From the NCBI GenBank assembly GCA_965262145.1, contig OZ253501.1, positions 3,427,435 through 3,491,434 on the forward strand: a stretch of 64,000 nucleotides of DNA, in the 5' to 3' direction. A program made the translations under genes and the position numbers. The notes beneath the pieces are model-generated. The model was not told the origin of the DNA and searched no databases. It was given only the letters and a program-made list of their open reading frames with translations. Positions 12,636 through 28,998 of the stretch are shown piece after piece; position 1 is the first letter of the stretch, and the number at the start of each line of letters is the position of its first letter. The DNA comes from Candidatus Latescibacterota bacterium. Its GTDB lineage: Bacteria; Latescibacterota; UBA2968.

Positions 12636-12666
12636 TGTACTCGAGGTGAGCAGAGGGGTATAATTA

Positions 12667-12721
12667 CGATAGCAGTTTATCGGCGTCCTGGAGTTACCCC
12701 GCTTTGGTGGAGTATTTAGGG
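12667..12721 (+). repeat. left copy of the island-bounding inverted duplication
   Basis: CGATAGCAGTTTATC-GGCGTCCTG-GAGTTACCCCGCTTTGGTGGAGTATTTAGGG is the reverse complement of 28780-28888, apart from one roughly 45-nt gap and a few mismatches. Confidence 0.8.
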
Positions 12722-12810
12722 CTTGGGTTTCAAGCCTGTGATTGATGCAGCTTTTCATAAGCTATCGGCGCATAGTAGGCGTCTGTTAAACATCGACGGA
12801 CTTTTATTTT
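12690..12810 (+). repeat. island repeat copy R1 (diverged, full length)
   Basis: Left arm GGAGTTACCCCGCTTTGGTGG, then diverged CCTGTG...TTTTCATAAGCTATCGG...GTTAAACATCGACGG, which tracks the consensus. Confidence 0.55.
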
Positions 12811-13253
12811 CTCAATTTCCACCAGTGGGCAGACTTCACGCCAAACCCTTGTCTGCCAAGAAAAACCATCATAAAACGCCCCACAAACCGCTTGGGGAGC
12901 TGGTGACGCCACGCAATTTAAGCAACTCGCGGTGTTGGCACACTATGTTTTATATGGGGTCGTGGTATATTTCTAACTCATTCAAAGGCGTTTGAACATC
13001 AACTCCGTCTGCACACACGCCGCCCTGTCAAGTGCCCGACCGCGCCGCCTGGTTGATCACCACAACCACAACATTTTGTGGATGCAGTTGGCCGTGGCAA
13101 CACAACATCTTGACGCGCCGGAGACATAGCCAGCGACTGAAATCAACAGGTTATCTCATTCAGCTTTTTCTATTTTGATCTGGACAGGTTGTGGTGACTC
13201 AATTTTCACAGGTCTTTTATTTTTTGTCGTGTACTTTGTTTATATCAACTGGG

Positions 13254-14197
13254 TTATCCGTCTGTTGGTGCCTGCGGATAAAAGCCAGAGAGCAGGGTTA
13301 ATTCCATGCCGGTTTGTGGGTCTGTGATTGGGGTGGCATAACTTATCTTGGGCGAGCCAACGGGATCGCCTACCAATTCACCATCCCCATTCTCATCTAC
13401 CGCCGGATTATCAAAATAATACTCGACAAAACCACCACCTGCAGCGGCTGCAGCGATGAGTTCCTGGACAGCTTTGACACCATTGGGGTCTTCAAAGTTA
13501 ATCAGGTTTTGTCCCTCGAGAGCTGAATTGGCTGCGTGAAATAATATGACGCCATCGCTGTTTAAAACTGCGAGGTAGATGGATCCGTGTTTCCACTTTC
13601 CTCCTTCTTGTCTGAATTCTTCTTCGATGTCTTCGGAAAAGGGGAAGCTTTGCGCGTATTTTTTTGCGGTTTCGACAAATGCTTTCAGGGTTTTTTTGTC
13701 CACTACGTCACGAGCCGTGATCTGCTTTGCTGGCTCCAGAGAGTATGAACCCTTCACCTGTGCCTTTCCACCAATGGGCAAATAGAGTATGATCTTATAG
13801 CCTGCGTTAATTGGTATGCTCGACCAGGAACCGATCTCGCTATCATCTTGCAAGGCACGCGCTTGATAATAACCATTTCCCGATGCGATTTCCACCAGCG
13901 TTTGACCTTTTTCATCGGTTGTGCCCGACCATTGATAGTCGGGAGCCTGTCCTGCAATAGAGCGCGAAAATGCGACGGTTGCACCGCTTGCACCGCTTAT
14001 TGGTGTGCCATCACTATGCAATGTGACCATGACCACAGCCTGTGCTTTGTGATGGGCTACTGCCAATTTGCTCAAGGGACGTCCAATCTGTTCCTCTGTT
14101 CCGACTTCCGATTGCATCACACGCTCTCCGCCGCAGTTCCACATCAGCCCTGCGGCGAGAGCTATGACAACGATACTGCGAATGTTTCTCAACATAG
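13254..14197 (-). CDS. secreted lipoprotein with a Cache_2-like sensor domain
   Basis: Start at the ATG at 14197, preceded by GGGAGG. Lipoprotein signal MLRNIRSIVVIALAAGLMWNCGG. C-terminal YLAVLNSDGVILFHAAN...GGGFVEYYFDNP. Confidence 0.6.
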
Positions 14198-14369
14198 CAA
14201 CCTCCCTGGTAAAAAAGCGTTGTCTCACTGCGAATTTGTCGCAAAATAAAAATCATCACGGCGATAACCTCCAAAGCCAGACCAGATAAATCACCAATGG
14301 GTTAAACTCAATCATCTCTTTCTACTGGGTGAGGCATGGGGTTGAAACTTCTACAATATCTCGGTGTGA

Positions 14370-14435
14370 GAAAATATAACGCTGATGCCCAATGTCAATT
14401 AGCCTTTATACCGGTTCAACTATTGGGGCGCACCT
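14370..14435 (-). promoter_or_regulatory. conserved 66-nt promoter-bearing module P1
   Basis: Minus strand has TTGACA (14398-14393), a 16-nt spacer and TATTTT (14376-14371). Differs from 19915-19980 at 4 positions by my count. Confidence 0.5.
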
Positions 14436-14545
14436 CACCCGATTTAATGGATAGTGCATAAGTTCACCCCAGTCATCCTGTGCCATTAGTTTTTCATAGG
14501 TGATGAGTGATTTATGATATGATCCACCAAGACGGGTCAAGTTCA
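14433..14545 (+). repeat. island repeat copy R2
   Basis: Core TTCACCCCAGTCATCCTGTGCCATTAGTTTTTCATAGGTGATGAGTGATTTAT and right arm CACCAAGACGGGTCAAGTTC. Ends 8 nt from the stop codon at 14553-14555. Confidence 0.8.
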
Positions 14546-14552
14546 ACTGTGT

Positions 14553-16223
14553 CTATTCGACAACATCAATCTTACCAAAGTTATCCACAAAGAGCAAAAA
14601 ATCAGGAATCCCTATCACGCCATTCCCGTCCAAATCAAACCTCGCCTCAAATCCCTCTTGCTCTATACTCAATCCGAACACATCCACAAAGAGCAAAAAA
14701 TCGGAAATATCTACGACCCCATTCCCATCAAAATCGCCATACGTTGCAGTGACATCTGTAACGTTAATAGTTACTGTAATTTCATCACTCAAACGAAAAG
14801 GATCAGTAGCAGTAACAACAATATGGTATGAAGTCCTGCTTTCATAATCTAACTCTACACGCGCTCGCACCTCTCCAACTGAAGGGTCCGATACGTGAAA
14901 AGACGTTTCATCTTGTCCACTTAGTTCATAGGTAAGTATCTCGCCATCGTCATCAGTAGCCGTAACCGTAGCCACAACTGCTGAAATATTATTGTTTTCA
15001 GCGACACTCACACTAATACTATTAGATGCAAAAGAGGGTTTGACACTTGGAATAACCCTTAAAATCTTATCTGTTCCAGTTCCAAATGTTGGATCATCCT
15101 CGTTACGAGGCGAAATATGACCCGTTGCAATATACAAGCAACTATCATGACCAATCACAGGTGTACGAAGCCGACCGTATGTATCTTGCAATTGAGGAAT
15201 AATAAACTCACTTAACGAGCCTATTTCGGGGATTTTGTAAAGACGTAATGATTGTGCTTTTAATGTTGCTACCGCCAAGCGACCTTCCCAATCTTTCCAT
15301 GCACTACCTTTAAGAAAAACACAACCACTCGGAGCTATGGTACTATTTCCCGACGACCACTTAGCATCAATAGCACCGGGGAATTTAGTCTTATCCGTCA
15401 TAGACACATTTTTTTCTATATAAGTGGAACCATCGGAAGCAACAGGGTCCCATCCATAATTACCACCGCTTCGCAATAAATTGATTTCATCTTGATGATT
15501 TGGACCATGATCTGCTAACCACATTTCATTTGTGCCAGGTCTCAAAGCCAAACCTTGCGGATTGCGATGCCCAAATGTATAAACAAGAGGATAATCAGAA
15601 TAAGGATTTCCCGTATCACCTTCGCCTGTTTGTGGATTAACACGCAAAACTTTTCCGTTACGTGATGACGTGTCTTGTGGGGCATTTGCTCTAAATGCGT
15701 CACCAGTCGCAATCCACAAATTTCCATTTGGCCCGAAGCGTATGCGACCACCACCATGAGAGCCTTGATTTGCAACGCCTATATTATCTACAAGAGGGTC
15801 AACCACACGAGTAGCCTGCGTATAATCATTATTTATTGTCCACGCAATGACCTGAATTTTTGGTTCAATGTCCTCTGTATCATGACCCTGATAAGTATAA
15901 AAACGCCTATTCGTCTCGAAATTGGGATCAACAGCAATGGACATAAAACCAGTAATTCTTTCGTTAAATAAATCACTAAAATCAGCGTTAACAATCTTTA
16001 CTGTGCCATTTGTCAATCGAGCACTTAGCCTGCCTTGTCGCTCTGTAAATAGCATTGTCCCGTCAGGCGTAAAAGCCATATCCCACGGTGTCGATAATCC
16101 AGTAACTAACTCTTGAATCGTAAGATTAGGCGTATTACTGTCTTGCGCCTGTACATACGTTACAGAATTAAAAAAGAAAAAACATGCACAAAAAAAAGAT
16201 GATGTACTTGAAAATGAAAACAT
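14553..16223 (-). CDS. PQQ-dependent sugar (sorbosone/glucose) dehydrogenase fused to cadherin-like and dockerin-like repeats
   Basis: HGGGRIRFGPNGNLW and FGHRNPQGLA motifs. C-terminal DFDGNGVVDISDFLLFV and DLDGNGVIGIPDFLLFV repeats. N-terminal signal peptide. Confidence 0.75.
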   Translation of the reverse strand: MFSFSSTSSFFCACFFFFNSVTYVQAQDSNTPNLTIQELVTGLSTPWDMAFTPDGTMLFTERQGRLSARLTNGTVKIVNADFSDLFNERITGFMSIAVDPNFETNRRFYTYQGHDTEDIEPKIQVIAWTINNDYTQATRVVDPLVDNIGVANQGSHGGGRIRFGPNGNLWIATGDAFRANAPQDTSSRNGKVLRVNPQTGEGDTGNPYSDYPLVYTFGHRNPQGLALRPGTNEMWLADHGPNHQDEINLLRSGGNYGWDPVASDGSTYIEKNVSMTDKTKFPGAIDAKWSSGNSTIAPSGCVFLKGSAWKDWEGRLAVATLKAQSLRLYKIPEIGSLSEFIIPQLQDTYGRLRTPVIGHDSCLYIATGHISPRNEDDPTFGTGTDKILRVIPSVKPSFASNSISVSVAENNNISAVVATVTATDDDGEILTYELSGQDETSFHVSDPSVGEVRARVELDYESRTSYHIVVTATDPFRLSDEITVTINVTDVTATYGDFDGNGVVDISDFLLFVDVFGLSIEQEGFEARFDLDGNGVIGIPDFLLFVDNFGKIDVVE

Positions 16224-16238
16224 TAAAACTACTCCATA

Positions 16239-16282
16239 GAGTTACCCCGCTTGCGTAGTGGATTTACCCCATTTTAATAGAC
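16239..16282 (+). repeat. island repeat copy R3 (left arm and start of core only)
   Basis: GAGTTACCCCGCTTGCGTAGTGGATTTACCCCATTTT; lies 16 nt upstream of the ATG at 16223. Confidence 0.6.
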
Positions 16283-16287
16283 AGAAA

Positions 16288-16470
16288 CTATTTCAACAGA
16301 ATCATACTACGCGAAAAAAAATCTCCTACAATAAGACGATAAACATATACCCCACTTGCAACCTGACAATACAGATTATCCTTGCCGTCCCACACTACCG
16401 TATAATCCCTTCTGACAAAGTGGTTTCGGCACTATTGTATATAATGCAGACCTGCCAACGTCACGATGCT
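16288..16470 (-). pseudogene. remnant of a FlgD-Ig/T9SS-type C-terminal sorting domain
   Basis: Minus-strand translation YTVVWDGKDNLYCQVASGVYVYRLIVGDFFSRSMILLK*, with an internal stop just upstream and no start codon. Confidence 0.6.
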
Positions 16471-16650
16471 GCCGGTTAAACAATCGTCAAGACCCTGGCC
16501 ACAATGATTCTATACCGTGATGTCCTCCGGCCGCATCCACAACATTTGACAATCTCCCTTTCGATAGTCTCTTTTTGCCTAAATTTTTCATTAACGGCTT
16601 ACACAAATTGTCCACCGTATTGATTGTAAAAGACCATTGTTATGATGTTA

Positions 16651-18936
16651 TTATGCTCCATGCTTTACCGCTCCATGCTTTACCGATGACAAAAACTCAT
16701 CTAATGACCCCAAGGTCGTCGGTACCGCCGCTTCAATATTACTCATAGGAACACATATTCCAAAGCGTCGCTGCGCTCCGCTTCCCTTGTATGGAACCTC
16801 CTGAAGAATTTCTTTGCCGATCATCTTTGGCAAAATTATTTCCATGAATCGGTTAGCATCTCTACCAAACTTCTGTCGGAATACGCCCTCATTGATCTGC
16901 GTTGCTCTCATAAACACCCTGAGTGCACGCTCTGCAAGAAGGGTATTTCCATCTGCTTTAGGTACCGGTTGTCGTTCCGTCAAGCGGTTCTCAATACTCT
17001 CTACTTCAAATCCTGCCGAAATAAGCTCTTCGCGAATCCTTTCGGGATCATATATACTACGCAATTCGTCAGACTGAGTTATGGTTATACCTGAAACCTC
17101 AGTATCTTCAATCAACGTATCTTCCGCCTGAAAGCCCCTCGAGATTTCTAACCGATGTATCGTACACCGTCCAAATTGACATCTACTGATATGCGTGTCC
17201 TCGAGAGATGTCTCTTGAAAGTAACATCCTTCAAATATGACTTTATAAAATCTCCGGCCCTTAAGGGCATCACTAGCAAACGTAAATTCTTTAATGACAA
17301 CTTCCTGATCAACGGGAAGCAACTCAAGCAATCTTATAACCATGGATGCCGCATTCTCCACAACGTAAGATGAGGGAGCACTTGAATTGACCAACGACTG
17401 GAGAATCCGAAGGACTCTACCAAGATCGCCGGCATTCCTCTTTACCATAATTAGTGCCGCATCACATGTTTGCTGTGGCAAAGGACCCTTTTCTAGAAAC
17501 TCAACTATGTCCCTATCATTATTTGCTAGCAACGTAGTACCTAATGCCTCCCCGAGATAAAATTTACGAAAATCTTCGTGGTCAAACGTATACGACTCCT
17601 CATTCTCTGATGTAGAAACAATTAATGAATGTTGCCTGATACGATTGATAATTTGACGTACAATCACTGTTGGTTTGCCGATCTCACTAGCGAATAACTC
17701 TCCAATCAGATCTAGATAGTCTCCTTTAATTACTTCGCTTGAGAATATCCACATCTCCTTTGCCACTAGTGCCAGTAGCGCATGGTGTTCTTCAGTTGTC
17801 AGCAGAGATTGATGGGGTGTACCAGAACGATCTATCCACTTTTCGCGAGCTTCTCGCTCGACAAGCGTATTAACAAACTGAAAGAAGTAGTCTTCAGGAT
17901 TAGTCCCGAGATGGTCAATTAGAGTATCAACATTTCCACCTTGTGCCTCCTCCACTAGCCGTCTTACCAAGACCGCTCGGGTCAGCAAAGGATGATTTGG
18001 TCCTAACCGTGTACGAACTTTATTGTATATCGTTTCTCTATCTGAAAGGTTTCTCCTCTTCGCATAATTAAGAAAACGTTTTCGATCCCACCTATTGAGC
18101 TTAATATTAGCAAAAGAAACTGATCTATCTCGAATAGCATCAAACAGTCTAGCTTGGGTAGCGAAGTTCCTATACTCAAAGTATGCCTTTCTTGCGGCAA
18201 TTAGAGCTGTTCCGGATGAATCGAGAGTGTTCATCAGGTTCCCCAATGCTGATAATGCCTCTCCAGATGATCCCTCAACGAACATCTCTTCAAAGCCATC
18301 GAAAGCGGGAACCAGTACCCCCAGTTTAACTAGTTCCAAGAATGCGTCATAATAAAAAAACTGGAAGCGTAACCTGTTTACGAGTTCTGCAATTACAATA
18401 TCGTCGAATGTCAAGAAGGAACGTCCGCCAAGGCTGATTGGGATCAGTAACCAGTCCGTCTTCTGGTCCTTGTAGAGTTGTGCCTGATTTCGCGCTATCC
18501 AATTGATGAGTGTGGTCTTCCCCTCGCCCGCATCGGAGGTTAAATAGAGAACTGTCGACGTTCCTACTGCCCGGGAAGATAAAAGATCTGGTATTTGGTT
18601 AGAAACATCCTCAACTTTCTTTTCCCTGTCCTCTGGATTGGCATCAATTTGATCTAGTAACATTCCAGAAGGTGATATGAAATGTGGCTCGAAAGGAACA
18701 TTATCTAGTAATCTATCCGCGAGTTGTGGAATTCTAGCTACACGGTTTACCAACCAGGAATACGCACTATTTTTTTTTCCGTTTTCAGTAATAAGCAGAT
18801 TGCCCTTCTCTTGTTCGACAGACACTTCTATGATCTGGTCTCTAATCTGAACTACCAACTCACTACCAGCCATATCTAAATCTGATTCGCTATCAGCGAA
18901 GGCAATCAGAATTTTTTTTAGATCATTGATATTCAT
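16651..18936 (-). CDS. NACHT/STAND-type P-loop NTPase with a pentapeptide-repeat-like C-terminal region
   Basis: Walker A LTSDAGEGKTTL and Walker B LVPAFDGFEEMF. FEGCYFQETSLEDTHISRCQFGRCTIHRLEI repeat-like block. 761 aa. Confidence 0.7.
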   Translation of the reverse strand: MNINDLKKILIAFADSESDLDMAGSELVVQIRDQIIEVSVEQEKGNLLITENGKKNSAYSWLVNRVARIPQLADRLLDNVPFEPHFISPSGMLLDQIDANPEDREKKVEDVSNQIPDLLSSRAVGTSTVLYLTSDAGEGKTTLINWIARNQAQLYKDQKTDWLLIPISLGGRSFLTFDDIVIAELVNRLRFQFFYYDAFLELVKLGVLVPAFDGFEEMFVEGSSGEALSALGNLMNTLDSSGTALIAARKAYFEYRNFATQARLFDAIRDRSVSFANIKLNRWDRKRFLNYAKRRNLSDRETIYNKVRTRLGPNHPLLTRAVLVRRLVEEAQGGNVDTLIDHLGTNPEDYFFQFVNTLVEREAREKWIDRSGTPHQSLLTTEEHHALLALVAKEMWIFSSEVIKGDYLDLIGELFASEIGKPTVIVRQIINRIRQHSLIVSTSENEESYTFDHEDFRKFYLGEALGTTLLANNDRDIVEFLEKGPLPQQTCDAALIMVKRNAGDLGRVLRILQSLVNSSAPSSYVVENAASMVIRLLELLPVDQEVVIKEFTFASDALKGRRFYKVIFEGCYFQETSLEDTHISRCQFGRCTIHRLEISRGFQAEDTLIEDTEVSGITITQSDELRSIYDPERIREELISAGFEVESIENRLTERQPVPKADGNTLLAERALRVFMRATQINEGVFRQKFGRDANRFMEIILPKMIGKEILQEVPYKGSGAQRRFGICVPMSNIEAAVPTTLGSLDEFLSSVKHGAVKHGA

Positions 18937-18948
18937 AAAATCGCCGCC

Positions 18949-19683
18949 TTAAAAAGAATATTGAGAATAATTTTTTCTTACTGTTGAGGAGTAGTAAGTA
19001 GGTGTGCTACGCCCCTTTTGAGGATGAATGTGATGAACAAAAGCTCCTAGAAATATAGCTGTGCGAATTCCCGGCCAAAGGTCATCATCATTGGTGACCA
19101 CGACAATGTCCGATGTGCTCGAAGATGCAGCGTGAATCAAATCGGCCGTAAGCATCGTGTCAACTAGCTTCTGTTCATGTCGAGTAATTACATCAGCGAT
19201 TTTGACCCCACATGATGAATTAGGGCATCTGCCGGTTTGAAGGAGTGTGTGAGCACCAGCGAGCGGACACATAGCGTTTTGAGTACATGCTTGGAACGGA
19301 AATGCCCTAGGGCGAAGGTTGCTAGGTACACCCCTCACTCTATATGTGTTTAAAATATCCTGCGAAGGATCAATCAAAAGGCTCCGGGCCAACTCCACGG
19401 AAAGGAACACTACACGGCGCATATTGGCGGTACCTAAAGAGAGAGTACCCGGGAAGTAACGACTAATTTGGATGCTTAGATCTTGGGCACGTCGCGACAA
19501 TTGACTTGATCTATACCAGCCACCATAAAGACGAACTGCAATATATGTGCCGTGAGGTAACAAGCCTTTAGGGAGCTTTTTCAAAATCGACTTAACTACG
19601 TGATTCAATCCTTTCTGGGGGTCAATATGTGACACGTTGTCATAGTCAATCAGTACATTAATGAGTTTTCTAAGGGTTAACAC
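18949..19683 (-). CDS. NYN (PIN-like) domain nuclease with a Cys-rich insert
   Basis: GTG start preceded by GGAGAA. N-terminal VLIDYDNV, then QKLVDTMLTADL and DIVVVTNDDDLWPGI, typical of NYN/LabA-like folds. CPLAG...CPNSSC insert. Sits 12 nt upstream of the NACHT gene. Confidence 0.6.
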   Translation of the reverse strand: MLTLRKLINVLIDYDNVSHIDPQKGLNHVVKSILKKLPKGLLPHGTYIAVRLYGGWYRSSQLSRRAQDLSIQISRYFPGTLSLGTANMRRVVFLSVELARSLLIDPSQDILNTYRVRGVPSNLRPRAFPFQACTQNAMCPLAGAHTLLQTGRCPNSSCGVKIADVITRHEQKLVDTMLTADLIHAASSSTSDIVVVTNDDDLWPGIRTAIFLGAFVHHIHPQKGRSTPTYYSSTVRKNYSQYSF

Positions 19684-19844
19684 ATCAGTTCTCCGATAGT
19701 CAGACGATTTTTGCTTGGACGTTTAGCACAGGATTGGAAAGGCGTGCCTCATACTTTTGACTGTATCATTACCAGAGAAAATCTCGGCACCACTGTCGGG
19801 AAATTGACGTTCCCTTTGTCCGAGGTCAGAGCTTCTAAAACGAC

Positions 19845-19892
19845 CTAAGACTTGAGTTGCGCGGAGTGGGACTTCTTGGATTTCTGCGGCAC
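19845..19892 (-). CDS. possible 15-aa leader peptide (MPQKSKKSHSAQLKS)
   Basis: GTG start 5 nt after a strong AGGAGGAG. Lies between promoter module P2 and the NYN gene. Confidence 0.2.
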   Translation of the reverse strand: MPQKSKKSHSAQLKS

Positions 19893-19914
19893 GGTATCTC
19901 CTCCTGTTAGCTAA

Positions 19915-19980
19915 GAAAATACCACGCTGATGCCCAATGTCAATTAGCCTTTATAGCGGTTTAACTATTGGGGCGCACCT
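19915..19980 (-). promoter_or_regulatory. conserved 66-nt promoter-bearing module P2
   Basis: Minus strand has TTGACA (19943-19938), a 16-nt spacer and TATTTT (19921-19916). Near-identical to P1. Confidence 0.5.
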
Positions 19981-19981
19981 T

Positions 19982-20097
19982 GGAGTTCCCCCGTTTTCGC
20001 GTATAATGTAGAAGGTTCACCCCAATCATCCTGTGCCATCAATTTTTTATGGATGATTGGGGATTTATACTGTTATACACCAAAACGGGTCAAGTCC
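19982..20097 (+). repeat. island repeat copy R4
   Basis: Arms GGAGTTCCCCCGTTTTCGCG / CACCAAAACGGGTCAAGTCC. Perfect inner inverted repeat CCCCAATCATCC (20020-20031) / GGATGATTGGGG (20051-20062). Confidence 0.85.
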
Positions 20098-20121
20098 AGT
20101 CCATAATCGCACGGCCCGCTA

Positions 20122-21030: not shown

Positions 21031-21147
21031 TGATGTACCTCCTTAAAAAGATTCCTACTTCCGAGCGCGTGATTGGCTTTTTGACCGATTCACCCGCTTT
21101 TCCGCTCTATCACTGCTTCAACGAACTGGGCAACCATCCTTCAGGCT

Positions 21148-21263
21148 GGAATTACCCCGTTTGAGTGAATAGTGTAGAAGGTTCACCCCTATCATCCTGT
21201 GCCATCAGTTTTTCATAGGTGATGTATAATTTATAATATTATACATCAAAACGGGTCAAGTCC
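21148..21263 (+). repeat. island repeat copy R5
   Basis: GGAATTACCCCGTTTGAGTG...TTCACCCCTATCATCCTGTGCCATCAGTTTTTCATAGGTGATG...CATCAAAACGGGTCAAGTCC. Confidence 0.85.
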
Positions 21264-21376
21264 ACTTCCCACATCTTTTGTGAGCCTGTTTTTTCTCTCT
21301 GTGCATAATAAGCTGCTCTGGCAAATGGTTCTAAAAGTTTGTCCATGACAATTTTACTCCTTTCTGGTGAATTAAA

Positions 21377-21410
21377 AAAAGACCGTGCTTACCACAAGCA
21401 CGGTCTTTTT
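21377..21410 (-). terminator. hairpin terminator of gene 22884-23150, separated from it by the IS insertion
   Basis: AAAAAAAGACCGTGCTTACCACAAGCACGGTCTTTTT, with U-runs on both strands. Confidence 0.55.
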
Positions 21411-21417
21411 CGTGGAA

Positions 21418-22850
21418 GAGGTTGTGCTTATCTTAGTTGAAATAGTAGAGGCTCCAATGTAAATTGGATACAGCAGATTCAACCGTGAAAACGCTGTGTC
21501 CTCAACCAAAGGAGCCCGTGATGAAAAAAGTATCGCACAAAGCCCCCAAAGTCAAGACAATCCACAAAGACGATAAAACGCCAGAGAGCCCCACAGAAGA
21601 AGAACTGGACGCACTGGATACACGCATCGCGTTGATCCAGGCCTTGATCCCAATAGGATTAGACGCCGTGGCAGAAGAATTGCAGCAGGAAGTGAGCCGC
21701 TTAGCAGGTGATAGATACACTCGCAAAGAGCAACAAAACCCCAATCGTCGGTGGGGCAGTCAACAAGGGTCTGTGTATCTTTCTGATCAAAAAGTGCCTA
21801 TCTCTGTACCGAGGGTACGTAATGTGGAGACGGATGAGGAAGTCTCCCTGGGGGCCTATCATCATCTTCAGGTTCCCAGACGTATGGATGAAGGACTGCT
21901 GCTTCGCGTGATCAAAGGCATTGCGACAAGGTCTTATCACGCCTGTGCACAAGCGATACCCAAAGCCTTTGGGCTGTCCTCATCAACGGTATCGAGACGT
22001 TTTATCAAGGCGTCGGCACAAAAGCTGAAGCAGTTTCGGGAACGCTCTTTAGCGCAGTATGACCTCGTCGCCCTCTTTATAGATGGCAAGACCTTCGCGG
22101 ATCAGGAGATGATCATTGCCCTCGGCGTCACAGTAGAAGGCGAGAAGATCCCAATAGGCTTTGTCCAGGCTGCCACTGAGAACGAGCGTGTCTGTCGGCA
22201 GTTTATACAGTCCCTCATAGAACGCGACATGGTCTATCACAAGGGCCTGCTGTGTCTTATTGATGGCTCAAAAGGGCTGTATGCTGCCCTTACAAAGGCA
22301 TTGGACGGGTATGTAGTCATCCAGCGTTGCCAATGGCATAAGAGGGAGAATGTGCTTTCCTATCTGCCGAAAAATAAACAAGATGAGATCAAAAAGGCAC
22401 TCCAACACGCCTACGACCTGCCCACTTACAAAGAAGCTAAAACTGCTCTCTTATCCCTTAAACCCGAATTGGCCTTGATCAACGAAGACGCGCTAAACAG
22501 CCTTGAAGAAGGTCTTGAAGAAACACTCAGCTTGCATCGTCTGGGACTGATGCCACACTTGAAGCAGTCCTTTCGTACGACCAACTGCATTGAGTCGCTT
22601 AACTCAATGGTGGCACAACTCACCCGAAATGTGAAGCGATGGACAAACTCTAATCAACGCCGTCGCTGGTTAGCCACTGCACTCTTGGACATCCAACCCC
22701 GCTTGCGAAGGGTCAAAGGCTACAAAAGCCTACCCAGGCTCAGGCGCGCTCTGCACAAGAACTTGAAGATAGATACAGACTGGCAAGACGCGATTGCTGC
22801 TGATTGAATCCAACAGCCTCCATTATTTCAACTAAAAATAGGACTTGACC
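21418..22850 (+). mobile_element. IS256-family insertion sequence, intact, with an 8-bp target-site duplication
   Basis: TCGTGGAA occurs at 21410-21417 and 22851-22858. The terminal inverted repeats align without gaps from both ends (TTAGTTGAAATAGTAGAGGCT / TTAGTTGAAATAATGGAGGCT). 1433 bp. Confidence 0.85.
21521..22807 (+). CDS. IS256-family (Mutator-like) transposase
   Basis: Start at the ATG at 21521 after GGAG. Contains VALFIDG, LIDGSKGL and QRCQWHKRENVLSYLPK, all typical of IS256 transposases. Confidence 0.85.
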   Translation: MKKVSHKAPKVKTIHKDDKTPESPTEEELDALDTRIALIQALIPIGLDAVAEELQQEVSRLAGDRYTRKEQQNPNRRWGSQQGSVYLSDQKVPISVPRVRNVETDEEVSLGAYHHLQVPRRMDEGLLLRVIKGIATRSYHACAQAIPKAFGLSSSTVSRRFIKASAQKLKQFRERSLAQYDLVALFIDGKTFADQEMIIALGVTVEGEKIPIGFVQAATENERVCRQFIQSLIERDMVYHKGLLCLIDGSKGLYAALTKALDGYVVIQRCQWHKRENVLSYLPKNKQDEIKKALQHAYDLPTYKEAKTALLSLKPELALINEDALNSLEEGLEETLSLHRLGLMPHLKQSFRTTNCIESLNSMVAQLTRNVKRWTNSNQRRRWLATALLDIQPRLRRVKGYKSLPRLRRALHKNLKIDTDWQDAIAAD

Positions 22851-22883
22851 TCGTGGAATGCACATAAATGACAACCGATGAGA

Positions 22884-23150
22884 TCATGTCAAATTATTGA
22901 TTTTAACCATGCAAATGTAATGCCTCATGGCCGTTCTCTGGTTTCGGATCGTCTTCTCTGGAACCTTTTTCACTTTCAATTTTTCGGAGATGTTTTCTAT
23001 GTCGTCTTGTGATTTAAGTGTTTCAGGGTTTATTGACATAGACAACTCGTTACAGACACGTTTCAAATATGATATATATGACTTTGTTGAGGCTACACTA
23101 ACTCCTTGTGCCCTTATGTATTTGTTATAGAGTTCACAATGTTCAATCAT
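22884..23150 (-). CDS. 88-aa hypothetical protein
   Basis: ORF only. The start codon lies 1 nt from the left arm of repeat R6. Confidence 0.4.
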   Translation of the reverse strand: MIEHCELYNKYIRAQGVSVASTKSYISYLKRVCNELSMSINPETLKSQDDIENISEKLKVKKVPEKTIRNQRTAMRHYICMVKINNLT

Positions 23151-23151
23151 T

Positions 23152-23365
23152 GGAGCTTCCCCGTTTTGGTGGTGTGTTTAAGGCGTTGGTGGCGATTGGT
23201 ATGGTATATAAACTAGCCAGTGAGGCCCAAAAAACAGGCTTCAGACTACGCGGTTACAGGCTCATCCCCTCGTCATTGAGGGGGTGAAGTTCCACAGCCT
23301 GCGCCATCAGTTTTTCATAGGTGATAGGTGATTTATAATGTTATACACCAAAACGGGGCAAGGCC
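23152..23365 (+). repeat. island repeat copy R6 (expanded by about 100 nt of internal sequence)
   Basis: Left arm GGAGCTTCCCCGTTTTGGTGGTGTGTTTAAGG; right half CCATCAGTTTTTCATAGGTGATAGGTGATTTATAATGTTATACACCAAAACGGGGCAAGGCC. Confidence 0.8.
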
Positions 23366-23424
23366 ACTCCAGTTATTTTTAATGGCATTTCAACAACATT
23401 AAAAATTTCGGGTCTTCACAGGAA

Positions 23425-24942
23425 CTAAAAAATATTCTTATCTTCGTCAACTACAATAGTATCGCCAAATATCTTACTTCTAAGACACATTGCAGTAATA
23501 ACTCGCAAATTTTGAATTGGATCGCCGAATTTACGTTGATATTCAACATACTCATTCAAATCTTGAGCTTCAACAGGATCAGGATGCGAAACAAGTTTAT
23601 TTCTTATTTTATACAACAGATTGAGCCTCCTAATTTCCAATTCATTATTACTATCAATTTTTAGTTCCTGAAGGATATTTTTTTTTAATTTTTCGCTACG
23701 ATCATCTTGAAATAATGCACTAAGTGTAGCAAATAGATGCCCATATTCTGTTAGCTGGTCAGTTTCAAACCATGATTTATGATACCACTCTAATGCTTTC
23801 ATCTCCTGAACATCAGATGACTTTTGGGATAACAATTTTGAATCTAAAATTTTCAACCATTTACAATCTTTCTCTGAAATAATTATATTAGTATGAATGG
23901 GTGGAGTTAAAGGTTGAGTAAAACTTTGACTACATACGCCATAATCAAATCTCATAACATCAGATATAACATCAGTTCTCGCTGTAAATGTCTTTCGCCA
24001 CCGATTGTGCAGATTCAAAGATATTGCACCTAATACAATTCTTTTTAAACGATCATGATCTTCAGGCTGGGCTTTTATGCCCAGCCAAGATGCTACCTCA
24101 ACTTTTTGCAGTATAGAGTTCCTATCAAATGTAGGTGGATACAAATTAGGAGCCTCGATTATTGCATCGCTGTCCTTGAGAAATGACCTAATGCCTGGAA
24201 ACAAAGATTTCACAAGAAAAATTTTTCCGCCTTTTGTATAGTAATCATTTTCGACATCTATAGTACTAGAGGGATATATTGACAAAGAAGACCTAAAAAC
24301 TATGCTACACTTTATCGCAAAATAAGTAGATAAAGTTTTCAGCTCCATACCTGACACTTGTTCATAGAAAGAACCCTTGAATGGCATACTCAAAACTGCA
24401 TCCTTGATGAACCAATAGACATGTAGAGAAGGAAAAAAGTCCTGTAAGTATTCTTTAATTATTTCTTCGTGACGCCGTTTTATATAGGGATATGAATTAT
24501 TTTTAAAATGTGATACCGCCTTATTAAAAAGATCAATTTTTGTATAAGTGCGAACACATAAGTCATCCTCTACAAATCTGAAAGGGCCCTCCTGAAATAT
24601 CCCTGTCCCAGTAAAACTAAAGCATTTAGAATCAATATCGTCTGTGTAACAAAATAAAGATTTGAGTAACAATTTGACAGTTTCTAAATGAAACTCCTCA
24701 TAAAAATGTATTCCTTTAGAAGCAGACTCTAAAATCGAATCGTATAAAAGACTCTTAGCCGTTTCAAAAAGATGTGGATTTCTGCCTTCCGTCAAATCTT
24801 CAAAAATGCTACTGGGAACCATCTGAAAGACCCTACGTCCGTTTTCTTCAATTTTCATCATATATTTTCGACCAGATTCATTTTGAAATATACGATTTCC
24901 ATTTATGTCAGGTTCAATCTCACACCAATTTTTGGGTATCAT
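23425..24942 (-). CDS. 505-aa protein with a C-terminal HEPN-like Rx5H motif (Abi/Apea-like candidate)
   Basis: LLYKIRNKLVSHPD near the C-terminus fits the HEPN Rx4-6H motif. AT-rich gene relative to its surroundings. Confidence 0.45.
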   Translation of the reverse strand: MIPKNWCEIEPDINGNRIFQNESGRKYMMKIEENGRRVFQMVPSSIFEDLTEGRNPHLFETAKSLLYDSILESASKGIHFYEEFHLETVKLLLKSLFCYTDDIDSKCFSFTGTGIFQEGPFRFVEDDLCVRTYTKIDLFNKAVSHFKNNSYPYIKRRHEEIIKEYLQDFFPSLHVYWFIKDAVLSMPFKGSFYEQVSGMELKTLSTYFAIKCSIVFRSSLSIYPSSTIDVENDYYTKGGKIFLVKSLFPGIRSFLKDSDAIIEAPNLYPPTFDRNSILQKVEVASWLGIKAQPEDHDRLKRIVLGAISLNLHNRWRKTFTARTDVISDVMRFDYGVCSQSFTQPLTPPIHTNIIISEKDCKWLKILDSKLLSQKSSDVQEMKALEWYHKSWFETDQLTEYGHLFATLSALFQDDRSEKLKKNILQELKIDSNNELEIRRLNLLYKIRNKLVSHPDPVEAQDLNEYVEYQRKFGDPIQNLRVITAMCLRSKIFGDTIVVDEDKNIF

Positions 24943-25133
24943 GATAAACCCCCGTCCCTTTGGTTACTGTGGTACATAATGCTTTTTTTTGAACACCCTA
25001 TTCTCGAATCGTCAAACCTGTGCCGTTTGTCGGGCTTGATTCCAATATACAGATCACCGTATCACCTTCTTTCCTGTTGGATGTTAGAGAAGACAGGTAA
25101 AGGGCGGTTCTATGAAAACCGCCCGTTAAGCAA

Positions 25134-25162
25134 AATATATCCAACAGCGTCCAGACTGACAA
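25134..25162 (-). promoter_or_regulatory. candidate sigma70 promoter for the HEPN-motif gene
   Basis: Minus strand has TTGTCA (25162-25157), a 17-nt spacer and TATATT (25139-25134). The hairpin GGGCGGTTTTCATAGAACCGCCC follows. Confidence 0.4.
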
Positions 25163-25184
25163 CCGTATTTTTGACTTGTATGCG

Positions 25185-25285
25185 GGATGACTCCGTTTTA
25201 GTGGATAGCGTAGAAGGTTCACCCCAATCATCCTGTGCCATCTTTTCATAGGTGATAAGTATATCCACCAAAACGGGGCAAGTCC
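25185..25285 (+). repeat. island repeat copy R7
   Basis: GGATGACTCCGTTTTAGTGGATAGCGTAGAAGGTTCACCCCAATCATCCTGTGCCATC...CACCAAAACGGGGCAAGTCC. Confidence 0.85.
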
Positions 25286-25287
25286 AG

Positions 25288-25454
25288 TTGGACATTGAAC
25301 CCCGCCTGCGAAGGATCAAAGGCTTCCGAAGTCTGCCCAGGCTCAGACTCGCGTTGCAGAAGGACTTGAAACTCGATACGGACTGGCAAGACGCGCTTGC
25401 TGCTGATTGAACCGACTGGCCTCTTATTATTTCAACTAAAAATAGGACTTGACC
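25288..25454 (+). mobile_element. 3'-terminal remnant of a second, diverged IS256-family copy
   Basis: Aligns with 22685-22850 of the intact IS (transposase C-terminus plus right inverted repeat ...AAAATAGGACTTGACC). Abuts repeat R7. Confidence 0.8.
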
Positions 25455-25594
25455 GGAGGGACCCGCCGGGGCACTAAAGTTGATAGTTGCATACAGAGTT
25501 GCCTTTTATCTATGGTTGCTTTGAAACCACACACCACGTAATATAAAGAATAAATCCGCAACTGCGTAACATCAGTTAAATAGGAGATTTCGAT

Positions 25595-26698
25595 ATGAAT
25601 AGGTTTTTAGTATGGACTATTTTGGTTTACTTAACTCTTGGTTGTTTTTGGGTTGTTTCTGCATCGGAGAAAGATCATGAGGTTAAAGGTAAGGCTGTTT
25701 CTATACCTGGAGAAAGAGACCTTGTTGGCGTATGGAAATTTAAGGATACTGACGCGCATGTGCTGTTGGCTGATAATTTGAAAGATTTTCTTCGCGTTCA
25801 AGGCATGGATTCCGTTCAGGCTGAGACGATGAGTAATACCATGTTGCCCATTTTGGAAGACTTTTTTATAGAAATGTCGGAGGGAATGGAAAGGCGTTTT
25901 TATGCGGACAATACATGGCAAAATAAGATTGGAGATAAAGGGACTTGGCGTATTGATGGTGATAAGCTCGTCGTAACTATTGATGAAGATTTTGTTTTCA
26001 GGTATGGTTGCTTTTTGGATGGTGATAACCTTACTCTTACAATTTCAGGGGCGCAGCTTTTGGATTTGGCTAAACAGTCAAGTGAAAGTTCTGGAGCGGA
26101 TACCGCGATGTTTGATAATTTTATCAAAGAAACGGATGTTGTAAACATAGTTTTTACTTCAGGATCAAGTAATGAAGCTGATATTTTTGGTCTTAAAAAA
26201 GGCATGGGTATTTCGGAAATACGTGCTTTGGGATTTGGTGATCTTGAAGAACAAGTAGAGGGTGTCTATGCTCAGTTTAACCCTAAGGTGCCAATAGGTG
26301 CGTTAAATGCAACTTTTGTTGTTCTGCCTTCTGGTGGACTTGTTAAGGTGTTGTTTAGTTTTGAGGTAAAAGCAGATGAGTATGGTTTTAAAATCAGAGA
26401 AAAATATGAGGAATTGCGTGACCTGCTCGAATGGAAGTATGGAAAAGGTGTTGAGCAGAATTTTTTGCGACCAGATGCAGATTTTATGTTGAAGGATCCA
26501 CCGTTTTATATGATGGCATTGGCGAAGGGGGCGCGTGTTCTTAGTTGGACTAAAGGATTTATACTTGACAATAGGTGGCAACTTCAAGCTGTGGGTGTTG
26601 AAGTGGAAGGCATAGACTTTAATACCGGAATGGTAATAGTTATTTATGAATTTGATGGATTTGAAAAATACATTGATAAACAAAAATCGGGGTTTTGA
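25595..26698 (+). CDS. secreted protein of unknown function
   Basis: Signal peptide MNRFLVWTILVYLTLGCFWVVSA. The only non-mobile island gene on the plus strand apart from the Rpn-like gene. Confidence 0.55.
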   Translation: MNRFLVWTILVYLTLGCFWVVSASEKDHEVKGKAVSIPGERDLVGVWKFKDTDAHVLLADNLKDFLRVQGMDSVQAETMSNTMLPILEDFFIEMSEGMERRFYADNTWQNKIGDKGTWRIDGDKLVVTIDEDFVFRYGCFLDGDNLTLTISGAQLLDLAKQSSESSGADTAMFDNFIKETDVVNIVFTSGSSNEADIFGLKKGMGISEIRALGFGDLEEQVEGVYAQFNPKVPIGALNATFVVLPSGGLVKVLFSFEVKADEYGFKIREKYEELRDLLEWKYGKGVEQNFLRPDADFMLKDPPFYMMALAKGARVLSWTKGFILDNRWQLQAVGVEVEGIDFNTGMVIVIYEFDGFEKYIDKQKSGF

Positions 26699-26701
26699 TT
26701 G

Positions 26702-26790
26702 GATTTGCCCCGGTTTAGTGAACAGTGCAGAAGGTTCACCCCAATCATCCTGTACTATTAGTTTTTCATAGGTGATAGGTGATTTATACC
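26702..26790 (+). repeat. island repeat copy R8 (right arm missing)
   Basis: GGATTTGCCCCGGTTTAGTGAACAGTGCAGAAGGTTCACCCCAATCATCCTGTACTATTAGTTTTTCATAGGTGATAGGTGATTTATAC; starts 4 nt after the stop at 26698. Confidence 0.8.
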
Positions 26791-26818
26791 TCAGCTTATG
26801 GATCGCAGTCCATTTTAT

Positions 26819-27190
26819 TCAGCTATCAATTCTTGATAGCGTAACCTGCTCATAGCAGGCACTTTGGTCGCTTTGGTCTGGATATTGCCCCTCGATCATT
26901 TGCCAAAATTTCCTTCTTTGTCTCTCCTTGCTTTGAAGCTGGAGTAACGGCTGCAACCGATAGACAGATAGGAAACTTAGTCTTGGGTCTGAGTCATCTA
27001 TCTTCAAGATAAAATCTTTAATTTCTTCATCCAGTTTGAGCAACTGTAGAATCAAGTGGATTTTGGGTTGCGAAATGCCCACCTGTTTCGCAAGTGCTCT
27101 CTGAGATTGAACGTGGCCCTTTTTAAGAAGTTCGTGATAATATAAGGCTCTTTTGATATAATTGGGATGTAGCAATTTTCGAGTAACCAA
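26819..27190 (-). CDS. ParB/KorB-like HTH DNA-binding protein, possibly N-terminally truncated
   Basis: RALAKQVGISQPKIHLILQLLKLDEEIKDFI. TTG start. The frame stays open without an ATG up to about 27316, and a neighbouring frame holds ORF 27220-27405. Confidence 0.45.
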   Translation of the reverse strand: MVTRKLLHPNYIKRALYYHELLKKGHVQSQRALAKQVGISQPKIHLILQLLKLDEEIKDFILKIDDSDPRLSFLSVYRLQPLLQLQSKERQRRKFWQMIEGQYPDQSDQSACYEQVTLSRIDS

Positions 27191-27654
27191 TTGTTTTTTA
27201 GTTTTATGTCCGATTGCGATTATGGGCTTATTGTTCCGACGGGTGTGATGGATGGGGAAGTGGTCCCATACGGAAAAAAGTTCAGTGAATGCATCAGTCG
27301 GGCAACCAATTTTTTAAGGTCGTAAATTGTTGCTGCAACTGAGCAACACTTACGGCCTTTTGTTTTTTTATCAAAAGCGATCAACTCTTTCACCATACCG
27401 CTCATTCATCGCTCAAAATATACACTTTTGCCGCCAATGCTTGTGCCCCTCTATCTCAGCTTCAACAGGCAATCCACAAATTCAAGTTGAAAAAAAGAGC
27501 ACAATACAGCATATTGAAAGCATAATGAGGTGCCTGAGTTTCTGTCGAGCCTCCTTTTAGCGCACAATTTTGTGACATTGGCCTGATATTTGCTCGGGTT
27601 CTGACTGTTGCGTTTGTCCAAAATACAACCAACCTTCAGACCAGGGCATCTCAC

Positions 27655-28626
27655 ATGGCAGAATTTGATACGATATCCAAACACCTCACTCAAACTTATC
27701 CCGACGACTTCGCTAACTTCACCCTCGGACGCGAGGACGTTGAAGTTCTTGCAGTCATTGACACAGAGCAATTCACTGTTGAAGTACACCAAACCGATAG
27801 CCTGATTCGCGTGCGTATCGATGGCGAGGAGGCACTGGTACACAACGAGTTTCAAACGACTGATAGCACCAATCCGCCTATGCCGCGCCGCATAGTCGGT
27901 TATATCGGACGTGCCATTGGGCAGCATGGCCTGCCGATATATTCCAACGTGATCTACCTGCGTCCCAATGCTGGGCAGCGCGATCCCGGGTACTATGTCC
28001 AGGAGCGTCCCGGCTACCACATCGCGATTCAGTACAAGGTGATCAGACTGATTGAGATAGAAGGGCAGCGCGTCCTCAATGCAGGGCATTCTGGTCTGAT
28101 CCCTTTCACGCCGTTGATGAAGCCACCAGAAGAGATGACCTCAGATGCGTGGCTACATCAGTGTATTCACACGGCTCGGATGCGCCCCATAGATCGGTCG
28201 TCCAGGGCGGATTATCTCGCAGGCATGGTGGCATTGAGCGAGTTGGTATATGAGTCTGAAACCATTTCTGATATTATTTTGAAGGAGGGCATCATGGATC
28301 TGATCCGCGAATCATCCCTTATCCAACGCTTTACCCAACAAAGCAGAGAGGAAGGCAGAGAGGAAGGCAGAGAGGAAGGCATTGAACAAGGTATTGAACA
28401 AGGCATTGAACAAGGACTCAGGGAAAGTATCCTCGACGTGTTGAAAATTCGATTTGATCTCCGCGAGACAGATCCCATATCTGCTCGCATAGCCGCCATC
28501 GACGATGTGCAACGCCTCAAGCAGTTGCACCGCGCGGCGGTCCAGGTGTCCAATCTTGATGAATTTAGCCGCGATCCAGAACCAAAAGGTGAGAACACCA
28601 TCATTTCTCAAAAGACTCCTTACTGA
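27655..28626 (+). CDS. Rpn/YhgA-like PD-(D/E)xK recombination-promoting nuclease / putative transposase with a DUF4351-like tail
   Basis: N-terminal D...E.Q layout (DSLIRVRIDGEEALVHNEFQT). REEG x3 and IEQG x3 linker followed by ILDVLKIRFD. Confidence 0.65.
   Translation: MAEFDTISKHLTQTYPDDFANFTLGREDVEVLAVIDTEQFTVEVHQTDSLIRVRIDGEEALVHNEFQTTDSTNPPMPRRIVGYIGRAIGQHGLPIYSNVIYLRPNAGQRDPGYYVQERPGYHIAIQYKVIRLIEIEGQRVLNAGHSGLIPFTPLMKPPEEMTSDAWLHQCIHTARMRPIDRSSRADYLAGMVALSELVYESETISDIILKEGIMDLIRESSLIQRFTQQSREEGREEGREEGIEQGIEQGIEQGLRESILDVLKIRFDLRETDPISARIAAIDDVQRLKQLHRAAVQVSNLDEFSRDPEPKGENTIISQKTPY
28343..28414 (+). repeat. in-frame tandem 12-bp repeats inside the Rpn-like gene
   Basis: GCAGAGAGGAAG x3, then G(C/T)ATTGAACAAG x3. 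Confidence 0.9.
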
Positions 28627-28882
28627 TATACCCATACCTGCCACCAATTATCACAGGCGCCAGGCCTTCTGAAAAAGCCCCAGCAAAGTCAAATTGCGGC
28701 TTGGCAACAAATTGTTCTTCCTTGTTGATATACCCCCACTTGCCACCAATTTTCACAGAAGCCAGGCCTTCTGAAAAAGCCCTAAATACTCCACTAAAAC
28801 GGGGTAACTCTAGCTGAGGAAGCCGATAGGCTGACGAAGCATCTTTTACCTCTGAAGTATATAGATAATAGGAGATGAACTG
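28601..28882 (-). pseudogene. start-less 3' fragment of a WG-repeat (KWGYI-type) protein gene
   Basis: The minus-strand frame opens directly after a TAG and has no ATG: ...LPRFSGVFRAFSEGLASVKIGGKWGYINKEEQFVAKPQFDFAGAFSEGLAPVIIGGRYGYISKESFEK*. Confidence 0.6.
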
Positions 28883-28888
28883 CTATCG
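28780..28888 (-). repeat. right copy of the island-bounding inverted duplication
   Basis: The reverse complement CGATAGCAGTTCATC...TATCGGCTTCCTCAGCTAGAGTTACCCCGTTTTAGTGGAGTATTTAGGG matches 12667-12721. Confidence 0.8.
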
Positions 28889-28998
28889 CAGTTGTACACC
28901 GCTCCTTCGACTCCGCTGCGCTCCGCTCAGAATGACAGGTGCAGGATATTGTGCCTCTGCGTAACGTCAGACCTTAATTTAATTCAAAATATGCCCCC

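Follow-up and report, generated by a model that had tools for sequence, protein, structure and literature searches.

A tRNA-flanked mosaic island in Candidatus Latescibacterota with repeats that probably derive from IS3-type miniature elements

Between its genes for tRNA-Gln and tRNA-Pro, a 64,000-nucleotide stretch of a Candidatus Latescibacterota contig (OZ253501.1; hereafter the window) carries mostly unrelated genes separated by hairpin-forming repeats. What are these repeats? A preliminary description offered two answers. The locus could be an integrase-less, integron-like array, or an accessory/defence island bearing a structured element akin to MITEs (miniature inverted-repeat transposable elements). 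Our analysis supports the second answer and sharpens it; the repeat ends resemble those of the IS3 family of insertion sequences (IS). We therefore favour, with a probability of about 0.6, the interpretation that the repeats are IS3-derived, MITE-like, non-autonomous elements, possibly fossil, in a mosaic defence island. The island is low in GC content and has one or more genes of defence type. It represents one content among the six or more that a hotspot has in one species-level Candidatus Latescibacterota lineage.

Repeat units with ends of IS3 type

Copies were recovered with a repeat finder, by alignment and with an nhmmer profile. Their coordinates matched those given earlier almost to the base (Table 1). 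The family claimed across 12.69-28.81 kb was borne out, with eight co-oriented copies or part-copies and one inverted arm; full and partial copies do share an orientation. In terms of units, the window holds five full and three partial examples, and more occur in three of the comparison loci (L001, L003 and L017). The arm pattern has eight matches at three or fewer mismatches (0.00 expected from shuffles). A 30-nt core, identical in several copies, has four matches in the window, again with 0.00 expected. Self-BLAST of the window found no copy beyond 12.69-28.81 kb, the other 47 kb being empty. Units are 103-216 nt long and non-coding, with stop codons in all plus-strand frames. Two copies must be redescribed. 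The supposed diverged copy at 12690-~12810 is an arm only, and the module downstream of it differs. Repeat sequence does occur at 16239-~16282, but its form is two tandem arms rather than the left part of a unit. Locus L002, an independent assembly of a 99.9%-identical strain, shows the same structure. Hence, the structure is no assembly artefact.

Each unit runs from a left arm of ~21 nt, TGGAGTTACCCCGTTTTGGTG, to a right arm, CACCAAAACGGGKCAAGTCCA. The arms start with TGGA and end with TCCA, so forming TG...CA terminal inverted repeats such as an IS3-type DDE transposase recognises. Because the arms are inverted in this way, the unit can fold into a hairpin. Judged from their sequence, the terminal inverted repeats match the IS3-family type (TG...CA, 20-40 bp). 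Searching JGI metagenomes with a right-arm pattern gave six matches. One of these, TGAGCTTGCCCCGTTTTGGTGG in L016, equals the right arm at 20 of 22 nt and lies 10 nt past the stop codon of an rve_2/rve_3 open reading frame (ORF). Database relatives of this ORF are named InsO or IS3-family transposase. From this position and these names, we conclude that the L016 match is the right inverted repeat of an IS3-family IS. For comparison, we used two unrelated IS3 elements reached through plasmid matches, from Ralstonia and Caulobacter (L020 and L021); the Caulobacter copy is annotated as IS3-family. The theme TGnnCTTnCC(C/T)C occurs at the ends of both. The left and right inverted repeats are TGAGCTTCCCTCG... 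and TGACCTTCCCTCTG... in the Ralstonia element, and TGATCCTCCCTCGTTTCAGTGGAC and TGATCTTCCCCCGAGAAAGTGGAC in the Caulobacter element, which also ends ...GTGG. IS256 and IS630 were rejected as the repeat parent, their inverted repeats (GTGCTTATCTTAGTTGAAATA... and CTAGTGCATCTTGGCAG...) being unrelated to the arms. MITEs rely on transposases acting in trans, and the parent IS is assigned from the terminal repeats (PMC3189936).

The anatomy of the family is typical of MITEs: short, non-coding units with TG...CA ends, several interiors and solo ends. Besides solo arms, the same ends enclose B, long, A and D forms. The B form (~115 nt) is the unit of the preliminary description. In the 216-nt long form, the left part is homologous to sequence beside the arms at 12689 and 28812. 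The A module (~430 nt) has three copies in L017 and a partial one in L001. The D interior, a repeat of 67-85 nt, had escaped the preliminary description. Complete, arm-terminated D units of ~114 nt lie in L003 (17402-17515 and 10946-11057). A dif/Xer-like interpretation of the D-unit terminus (GGTGCGC...) was dropped on inspection by eye, since only 7 nt match and there is no second arm.

Each copy had been described as able to fold into one long imperfect hairpin. Intact copies do so strongly: the 19981 copy reaches -22.8 kcal/mol (z -4.9), with the perfect 12-bp inner stem reported earlier, and the 21147 copy -18.3 kcal/mol (z -4.6). The others are weak (z -1.3 to -2.5), and degenerate copies fold barely better than shuffles. 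In the consensus hairpin predicted by RNAalifold, a double change affects just 2 of 35 pairs and the covariation term is unfavourable (+2.17). Sequence is conserved, not merely structure, and covariation is negligible.

Arms coincide with breakpoints. The right arm at 21264 cuts a gene of which ~27 codons are left in the window, compared with 186 aa intact in L003; the stub at 21417-21267 matches L003 10293-10441. In three loci, the truncation point of an IS256 copy falls exactly at an arm: the window (25288), L003 (8759) and L017 (12966). An 88-aa gene module is 92-95% identical between two islands, and the homology ends within the arm at 23151-23171. Arms also crowd gene boundaries. As described earlier, one repeat ends at 14545, 7 nt from the stop codon (14553-14555) of the GSDH-cadherin-dockerin gene, and another starts at 23151/2 beside the start codon at 23148-23150. 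Several arms lie 0-15 nt from start or stop codons, and solo arms are mostly 0-130 nt upstream of a start codon.

The IS256 copies are not members of the repeat family, and both of those in the window had been missed. The complete copy (Table 1) is absent from the 99.9%-identical L002, and its site carries an 8-bp duplication, CGTGGAA(G/T). Hence, this insertion is very recent. The other is a 167-nt fragment (25288-25454). Further full or partial copies occur in L003 (8560-8759) and L017 (12227-12966 and 16393-17883).

A second, unrelated miniature element (~129 nt; terminal inverted repeats ATGCTGTTGCCGAATTC / GAATTCGGCAACAGCAT) is nested in IS3-type arms, each time at the same position. Examples are at L017 14526-14654, L003 ~993-1079 and ~5608-5736, and L001 ~1300-1351. 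The nested element made an 8-bp duplication (CGTTTTGG / CACTTTGG), the uninterrupted allele being window 12689-12724. It is this element, not the B unit, that shows presence/absence polymorphism at arms. The IS3-type arms seem to be its preferred target.

A variable hotspot between tRNA genes

Relatives of GlnS at 95-99% identity lie on many long contigs labelled Candidatus Latescibacterota, Latescibacteria or, wrongly, Gemmatimonadota. We compared eleven of these loci. The hypervariability ascribed to the locus was confirmed, with at least six states among strains whose GlnS proteins are 96-99% identical. The first state is empty: the convergent tRNA-Gln and tRNA-Pro genes are 97 nt apart with two terminators between them (L004, L005 and L006, GlnS 98-99%; L007, contig OZ242320.1, 96%). 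The second is a 1.4-kb island equivalent to window 27300-29061, including the solo inverted arm (L008, L018 and L019). L009 shares window 27300-28572 and has unrelated genes after it. L010 carries helix-turn-helix (HTH), CBS, DEAD-helicase, BrxC/D and TerB genes. L017 is a jumbled mosaic that contains two IS256 copies and four arms, all co-oriented. The sixth state is that of the window and L002.

All full repeat units are inside a strain-specific insertion of 14,757 bp. This is flanked by a 10-bp direct repeat, GGGCAACCAA, consisting of the last nine bases of tRNA-Gln plus A (12543-12552 and 27300-27309). Past this repeat, similarity at the insertion ends does not exceed that of shuffles (the aligned slices were off by ~8 nt). 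GC content is 43.2% in the insertion and 52-53% in the flanks. Empty sites, the 10-bp repeat and GC content together indicate, on sequence grounds, that the island is a horizontally acquired, strain-variable insertion. We rejected the idea that the repeats are att scars of serial integration at tRNA genes. They are unlike both tRNA 3' ends, and the last 16-24 nt of either tRNA have no second copy.

Full units are absent from L004-L010, L018 and L019. Hence, the repeat is a property of particular island DNA rather than of the hotspot. No trace of it was found in L004-L007, L009 or L010, and L008, L018 and L019 have just the solo arm on a WG_beta_rep gene stub. We also ran a 25-nt degenerate core pattern, which matches five window copies, as an exact search against 185,579 species-representative genomes. 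The sole match was L001, on the complete 5.75-Mb chromosome OZ242320.1 and away from the tRNA-Gln site. There, one full unit and two more arms lie among unrelated genes. The core pattern had no match in JGI metagenomes, nor did the right-arm pattern, the only one used there, in IMG/VR. L003, a second island, comes from the metagenome that also yielded L002, has a similar coverage and ends beside tRNA-Pro(CGG). One sample in the comparison, ERZ25071132, contains three or more strains whose islands differ. L003 contains Abi-type and other small genes with IS630 and IS256 debris. Its repeats comprise one full unit, the left arm of which is split by the nested element, three partial units and more arms beyond these, the arm matches totalling eleven (nine L-type). 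All have a single orientation, the same relative to genes as in the window. The core genome covered by L004-L010 and L017-L019 is free of copies. Thus, the family is rare, lineage-restricted and island-bound. It had been reasoned that genome-wide dispersal, a non-polymorphic locus or the lack of stable hairpins would reduce the repeat to an ordinary family of repetitive extragenic palindromes (REPs) or MITEs. In the DNA inspected the locus is polymorphic, hairpins fold and the repeat is undispersed.

The island ends share a further feature. A 92-nt module that separates tRNA-Gln from the first arm has 95.7% identity to L003 17544-17635, downstream of a different tRNA, tRNA-Pro(CGG). A partial inverted copy lies at 28874-28906, near tRNA-Pro(TGG). 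Hence the module stands outside the terminal arm where islands end beside three different tRNA genes. It might be an end piece of some larger mobile unit, or else have arisen through exchange between islands.

Pfam, NCBIfam and PADLOC searches agreed with only part of the earlier gene calls. The Cache, GSDH-cadherin-dockerin and ParB-type HTH calls were recovered and the NYN match was weak, but NACHT, Mrr and HEPN were not recovered. A 302-aa ORF (20122-21030) is a full-length match (E 1.7e-60) to PDC-S02, a candidate defence protein of PADLOC. Its L002 counterpart is broken into 274 + 50 aa by a difference of ~69 nt at window 20881-20950. The 88-aa ORF has just one close relative, a paralogue of 93% identity behind an arm in L003. 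Among 1.84 billion representative proteins searched with HMMER, the family of this ORF comprises stand-alone proteins of ~90 aa or the N-terminal domain of HNH/PD-(D/E)XK nucleases, and not that of recombinases. In L003 (10001-10922), the 88-aa gene is followed by the 186-aa gene that is a stub in the window. The two may form a nuclease system. At the right end of the 14.76-kb block, a 123-aa ORF (26819-27190) has the HTH part only of a ParB/Noc-type protein (Pfam HTH_ParB, E 8e-8) and a weak PHROG match labelled 'recombinase' (E 2.6e-5). In all probability this ORF is a ParB-like protein that has lost its N-terminal part. The WG_beta_rep stub contains a 102-nt tandem duplication (28617-28680 / 28719-28782) that is missing in L008. 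Beside it, in a plus-strand ORF (27655-28626) whose length ranges from 158 to 323 aa across strains, there is a KAER-type tandem repeat of 12 nt (28340-28387). The flanking genes scanned are housekeeping genes and include no recombinase.

A second variable spot lies ~9 kb to the left (window 1-3649; 1-3150 in L004-L007). The window, L002, L008-L010 and L017-L019 have ResIII/restriction-endonuclease and SLFN/AlbA_2-HATPase genes there; L004-L007 have PhyH-family genes. Extra insertions occur nearby in other strains. L010 carries an AAA_31 two-gene block between glnS and tRNA-Gln in addition to its CBS/DEAD-helicase/BrxC-BrxD/TerB island (11972-13383 and 15200-21680, respectively). In L009, a UPF0175/DUF3368 pair lies upstream of proS (7499-8234).

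Table 1. Features of the island and its borders in window coordinates
Feature	Position	Strand	Remarks
tRNA-Gln(TTG), left anchor	12478-12551	+	ARAGORN, Rfam
Strain-specific insertion, 14,757 bp	12553-27309	.	L008, L009, L018 and L019 join the tRNA-Gln 3' end directly to 27300
92-nt module, terminator-like hairpin	12598-12689	+	between tRNA-Gln and first arm
L-type arm	12689-12709	+	arm alone, then different ~430-nt module (type A, to 13119)
A module with L-type arm	12689-13119	+	arm, then decayed stub homologous to WG_beta_rep gene fragment
D interior, truncated	14353-14437	+	promoter-like TTGACA-16-TATTTT on minus (gene) strand
B unit, full, left arm partly deleted	14430-14545	+	nhmmer E 2.6e-34
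Two tandem solo L-type arms	16237-16257 and 16259-16279	+	13 nt upstream of start codon at 16223
Second D interior, truncated	19914-19980	+	94% identical to 14369-14435; promoter-like site; abuts next B unit
B unit, full, best-folding copy	19981-20098	+	perfect 12-bp inner stem
B unit, full	21147-21264	+	right arm abuts gene stub
IS256/Mutator-family IS, 1,433 bp	21418-22850	+	transposase ORF 21464-22807, Pfam Transposase_mut E 1.6e-32
88-aa ORF	22884-23150	-	SAM-like DNA-binding domain (integrase N-terminal type); start codon 0 nt from arm at 23151
Long form, 216 nt	23151-23366	+	L arm, WG-stub-like interior, right half of B core, R arm
B unit, full, short form with internal deletions	25184-25286	+	right arm 1 nt from truncated IS256 end
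B unit without right arm	26700-26789	+	left arm 1 nt from stop codon of plus-strand gene 25595-26698
Older island segment	27310-29061	.	97-98% identical in L008, L009, L018 and L019; absent from L004-L007
WG_beta_rep stub fused in frame to inverted arm	28606-28812	-	PF14903 called on L019 counterpart
Inverted L-type arm	28792-28812	-	37-nt match of 28777-28813 to 12688-12724, 92%
tRNA-Pro(TGG), right anchor	29108-29184	-	ARAGORN, Rfam

Explanations for the repeats

If the repeats are IS3-derived miniature elements, a transposase acting in trans, encoded either at another genomic site or in an earlier host of this DNA, would have spread them, as would local duplication. Transposase-mediated adjacent deletions and homologous recombination between copies would have removed target-site duplications. 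The same events would have truncated neighbouring genes and IS256 copies. Most of the island (14.76 kb) would have arrived as one block beside the tRNA-Gln 3' end. Surviving genes would be left as tightly bounded 'cassettes', and the integron-like look would follow from this. Some units may now supply promoters to the downstream gene.

Several observations weigh against such an origin. We found no autonomous IS3 (rve) element that has the ends TGGAGTTACCCCG.../...CGGGGCAAGTCCA, either in the window or among the other 18 loci compared (L001-L019). Among the best 120 relatives listed for the L016 transposase fragment, none is on a contig of this lineage; these are short fragments from other contigs. 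Moreover, the search pattern that found L016 itself enforced 18 matching positions, so the weight of that match rests mainly on its location at the end of a transposase gene. No full unit is flanked by a target-site duplication (3-5 bp expected), and the flanks differ. We saw no presence/absence polymorphism of a single B unit, L002 being identical apart from IS256. Within full units, degeneration is greater in the left arms than in the 30-nt core; selection by a transposase on the ends would give the opposite. Copy number is very low, with one exact core match in the 185,579 representative genomes and none in JGI. Finally, all island copies are uniformly oriented and co-oriented with the genes; random transposition predicts neither feature. 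Missing duplications are commonly ascribed to recombination between copies and adjacent deletions, and insertions of IS150, an IS3-family member, are often deletion-coupled (PMC11708052). The lack of target-site duplications could thus fit known IS3 behaviour, which is the explanation we propose for these units. Even so, the missing partner IS and duplications, the better conservation of the core than of left arms, the low copy number and the uniform orientation keep three rival explanations alive.

The first is a domesticated intergenic element, structural or regulatory, of the REP/bacterial interspersed mosaic element (BIME) kind or like the Neisseria intergenic mosaic elements (NIMEs), and spread by recombination rather than transposition. 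We regard this as possible, although clearly not the favoured account. It would explain why the core is better kept than the arms, even in another species-level genome (L001), and why orientation relative to transcription is constant. The mosaic of tandem arms and mixed interiors also recalls NIME arrays, which have been proposed to promote recombination of flanking genes (PMC1797815). Candidate roles, put forward just as tentatively, are a hairpin insulator or terminator, an mRNA stabiliser, a portable promoter, or portable homology for the exchange of neighbouring genes with incoming DNA. D units do have a promoter-like TTGACA-16-TATTTT motif facing outward through the arm toward the next gene, and B units TTTTCA-16-TATAAT. 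However, promoter-like sites are no commoner than in shuffles (40 versus 32.5 +/- 5.2). Nor does a T-run follow the hairpin, covariation is absent and other islands of this hotspot lack the family.

Second, the units might be passive cargo: ordinary genome-wide MITE or REP copies of a low-GC donor, imported with transferred DNA and never active here. The low GC content of the island, the confinement of units to islands, the lack of a local transposase and the degeneracy of many copies would all be expected. We nevertheless consider this explanation unlikely. The searches described above revealed no donor, the sole core match among representative genomes being from the same lineage. Three or more different islands, whose genes are unrelated, contain the units, and events at the arms, namely IS256 truncations and insertion of the second small element, postdate arrival.

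The last rival is an integron-like system in which a recombinase moves single-gene cassettes downstream of tRNA genes, as in a cluster of attC sites lacking integron-integrases (CALIN) with non-canonical attC sites. Units are co-oriented with genes in four islands, and some arms are 0-15 nt from start or stop codons. In addition, the 88-aa module is common to two islands with homology that stops in the arm, intact copies fold well as single-stranded DNA and the locus is hypervariable. Other findings count against such a system. The arms were said to differ from canonical attC R boxes, and a regular-expression scan agreed: no RYYYAAC/GTTRRRY pair occurs in any of six units +/-10 nt on either strand. 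Canonical attC sites were rejected on this basis. The left arm carries GTTTTGG and the right arm CCAAAAC, so that GTT left and AAC right reverse the attC order. A check for attC-like extrahelical bases was negative, the arms having two recurrent mismatches and zero bulged bases. The absence of tyrosine and serine recombinases also held among 43 window ORFs scanned with Pfam. These are the long ORFs of the window minus seven at its ends (822-8687 and 53930-63437), and none of the 43 has a Phage_integrase catalytic domain. No related island encodes an integrase either. The 88-aa ORF was rejected as a truncated tyrosine recombinase, because its relatives are stand-alone or nuclease-fused and IS256 does not interrupt it. 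Rfam, in an E-value scan of 12000-29500, returned two tRNAs only, so the repeat matches no RNA family of that database, which contains no attC model. PHROGs gave nothing but the one weak match of the ParB-type HTH ORF, and a prophage or satellite was rejected accordingly. Further, arms abut truncated genes and truncated IS copies, and positively match IS3 ends. The strain differences seen here are whole blocks and scrambled mosaics, not single-cassette insertions or deletions, and the L009 and L010 islands at the same hotspot lack the repeat. With no R boxes, no covariation, no integrase and arms at truncations, an integrase-less integron-like array is not supported, and we judge such a system very improbable.

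A bolder idea, which we think doubtful, is that the co-oriented arms act as cassette junctions. Via left/right arm pairs, including pairs drawn from neighbouring units, a transposase or other recombinase supplied in trans would carry single genes, each together with its promoter-bearing unit, into and out of islands that extend downstream of tRNA genes. Traces of this process would be the 88-aa module common to two islands, the spacing from arm to start codon and the end module that is identical beside two tRNAs. If this is correct, the arms would be part of a functional counterpart to the integron, based on a DDE transposase, by which defence islands are assembled. If the repeats are instead IS3-derived miniature elements, the locus is a well-documented example rather than a new principle. 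It then shows IS-derived miniature elements and IS256 scrambling a tRNA-flanked defence hotspot in the uncultured phylum Latescibacterota.

Relation to known systems

The repeats share several features with attC arrays and CALINs, for example those of Vibrio cholerae repeats (VCRs). Both have imperfect hairpins of ~100-130 nt between mostly single, co-oriented, unrelated genes with tight boundaries, and CALINs too have no integrase nearby. The differences are the missing RYYYAAC/GTTRRRY boxes, with GTT left and AAC right here, the conservation of sequence rather than structure, breakpoints that truncate genes and arms that match DDE-transposon ends. If the repeats are IS3-derived, the locus shows that debris of miniature elements and IS256 copies can mimic an integron array, a useful warning for sequence-only scans for 'integrase-less integrons'.

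REPs, BIMEs and REPINs (REP doublets forming hairpins) are likewise intergenic hairpin repeats of ~100 nt with two inverted arms. REPINs, however, are dispersed in tens to hundreds of copies with a Y1 (HUH) RAYT gene. Here, copies are clustered, the ends are of DDE (rve) type and we saw no Y1 transposase. Neisseria intergenic mosaic elements (dRS3/RS arrays) and Correia elements resemble the family in that ~20-bp repeats bound variable interiors of 50-150 bp. NIME arrays also lie beside variable genes, are mixed with IS and small repeats and have a proposed role in exchange (PMC1797815). Unlike our repeats, they are dispersed by the hundred per genome, and their sequence is unrelated. The 20-mer dRS3 has an internal palindrome and serves as the target of a phage recombinase; the arms here are IS3-type ends.

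As a whole, the locus resembles tRNA-linked genomic or defence islands. It lies beside a tRNA 3' end, has a short direct repeat of that end and is lower in GC than its flanks. Content varies between strains: PDC-S02 here, BrxC/D-TerB-helicase genes in L010 and Abi-type genes in the tRNA-Pro(CGG) island of L003. It departs from such islands in having no integrase gene, a tRNA-end repeat of only 10 bp (at least 16 nt expected), a position in the spacer between two convergent tRNA genes and a scrambled interior.

IS-derived bacterial MITEs, examples being MITEPsy1/ISPsy2 and integron mobilisation units, are the remaining comparison. The repeats described here differ from them in lacking target-site duplications and, in the loci read, an autonomous partner. 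They also differ in their very low copy number, restriction to few islands, co-orientation with genes and left ends less conserved than the core. Other features are shared. Such elements are 100-220 nt long, have no coding capacity and bear imperfect terminal inverted repeats of an IS family. They depend on a transposase in trans, can have several interiors between one pair of ends and, where two copies enclose genes, offer a potential composite transposon (PMC3189936).

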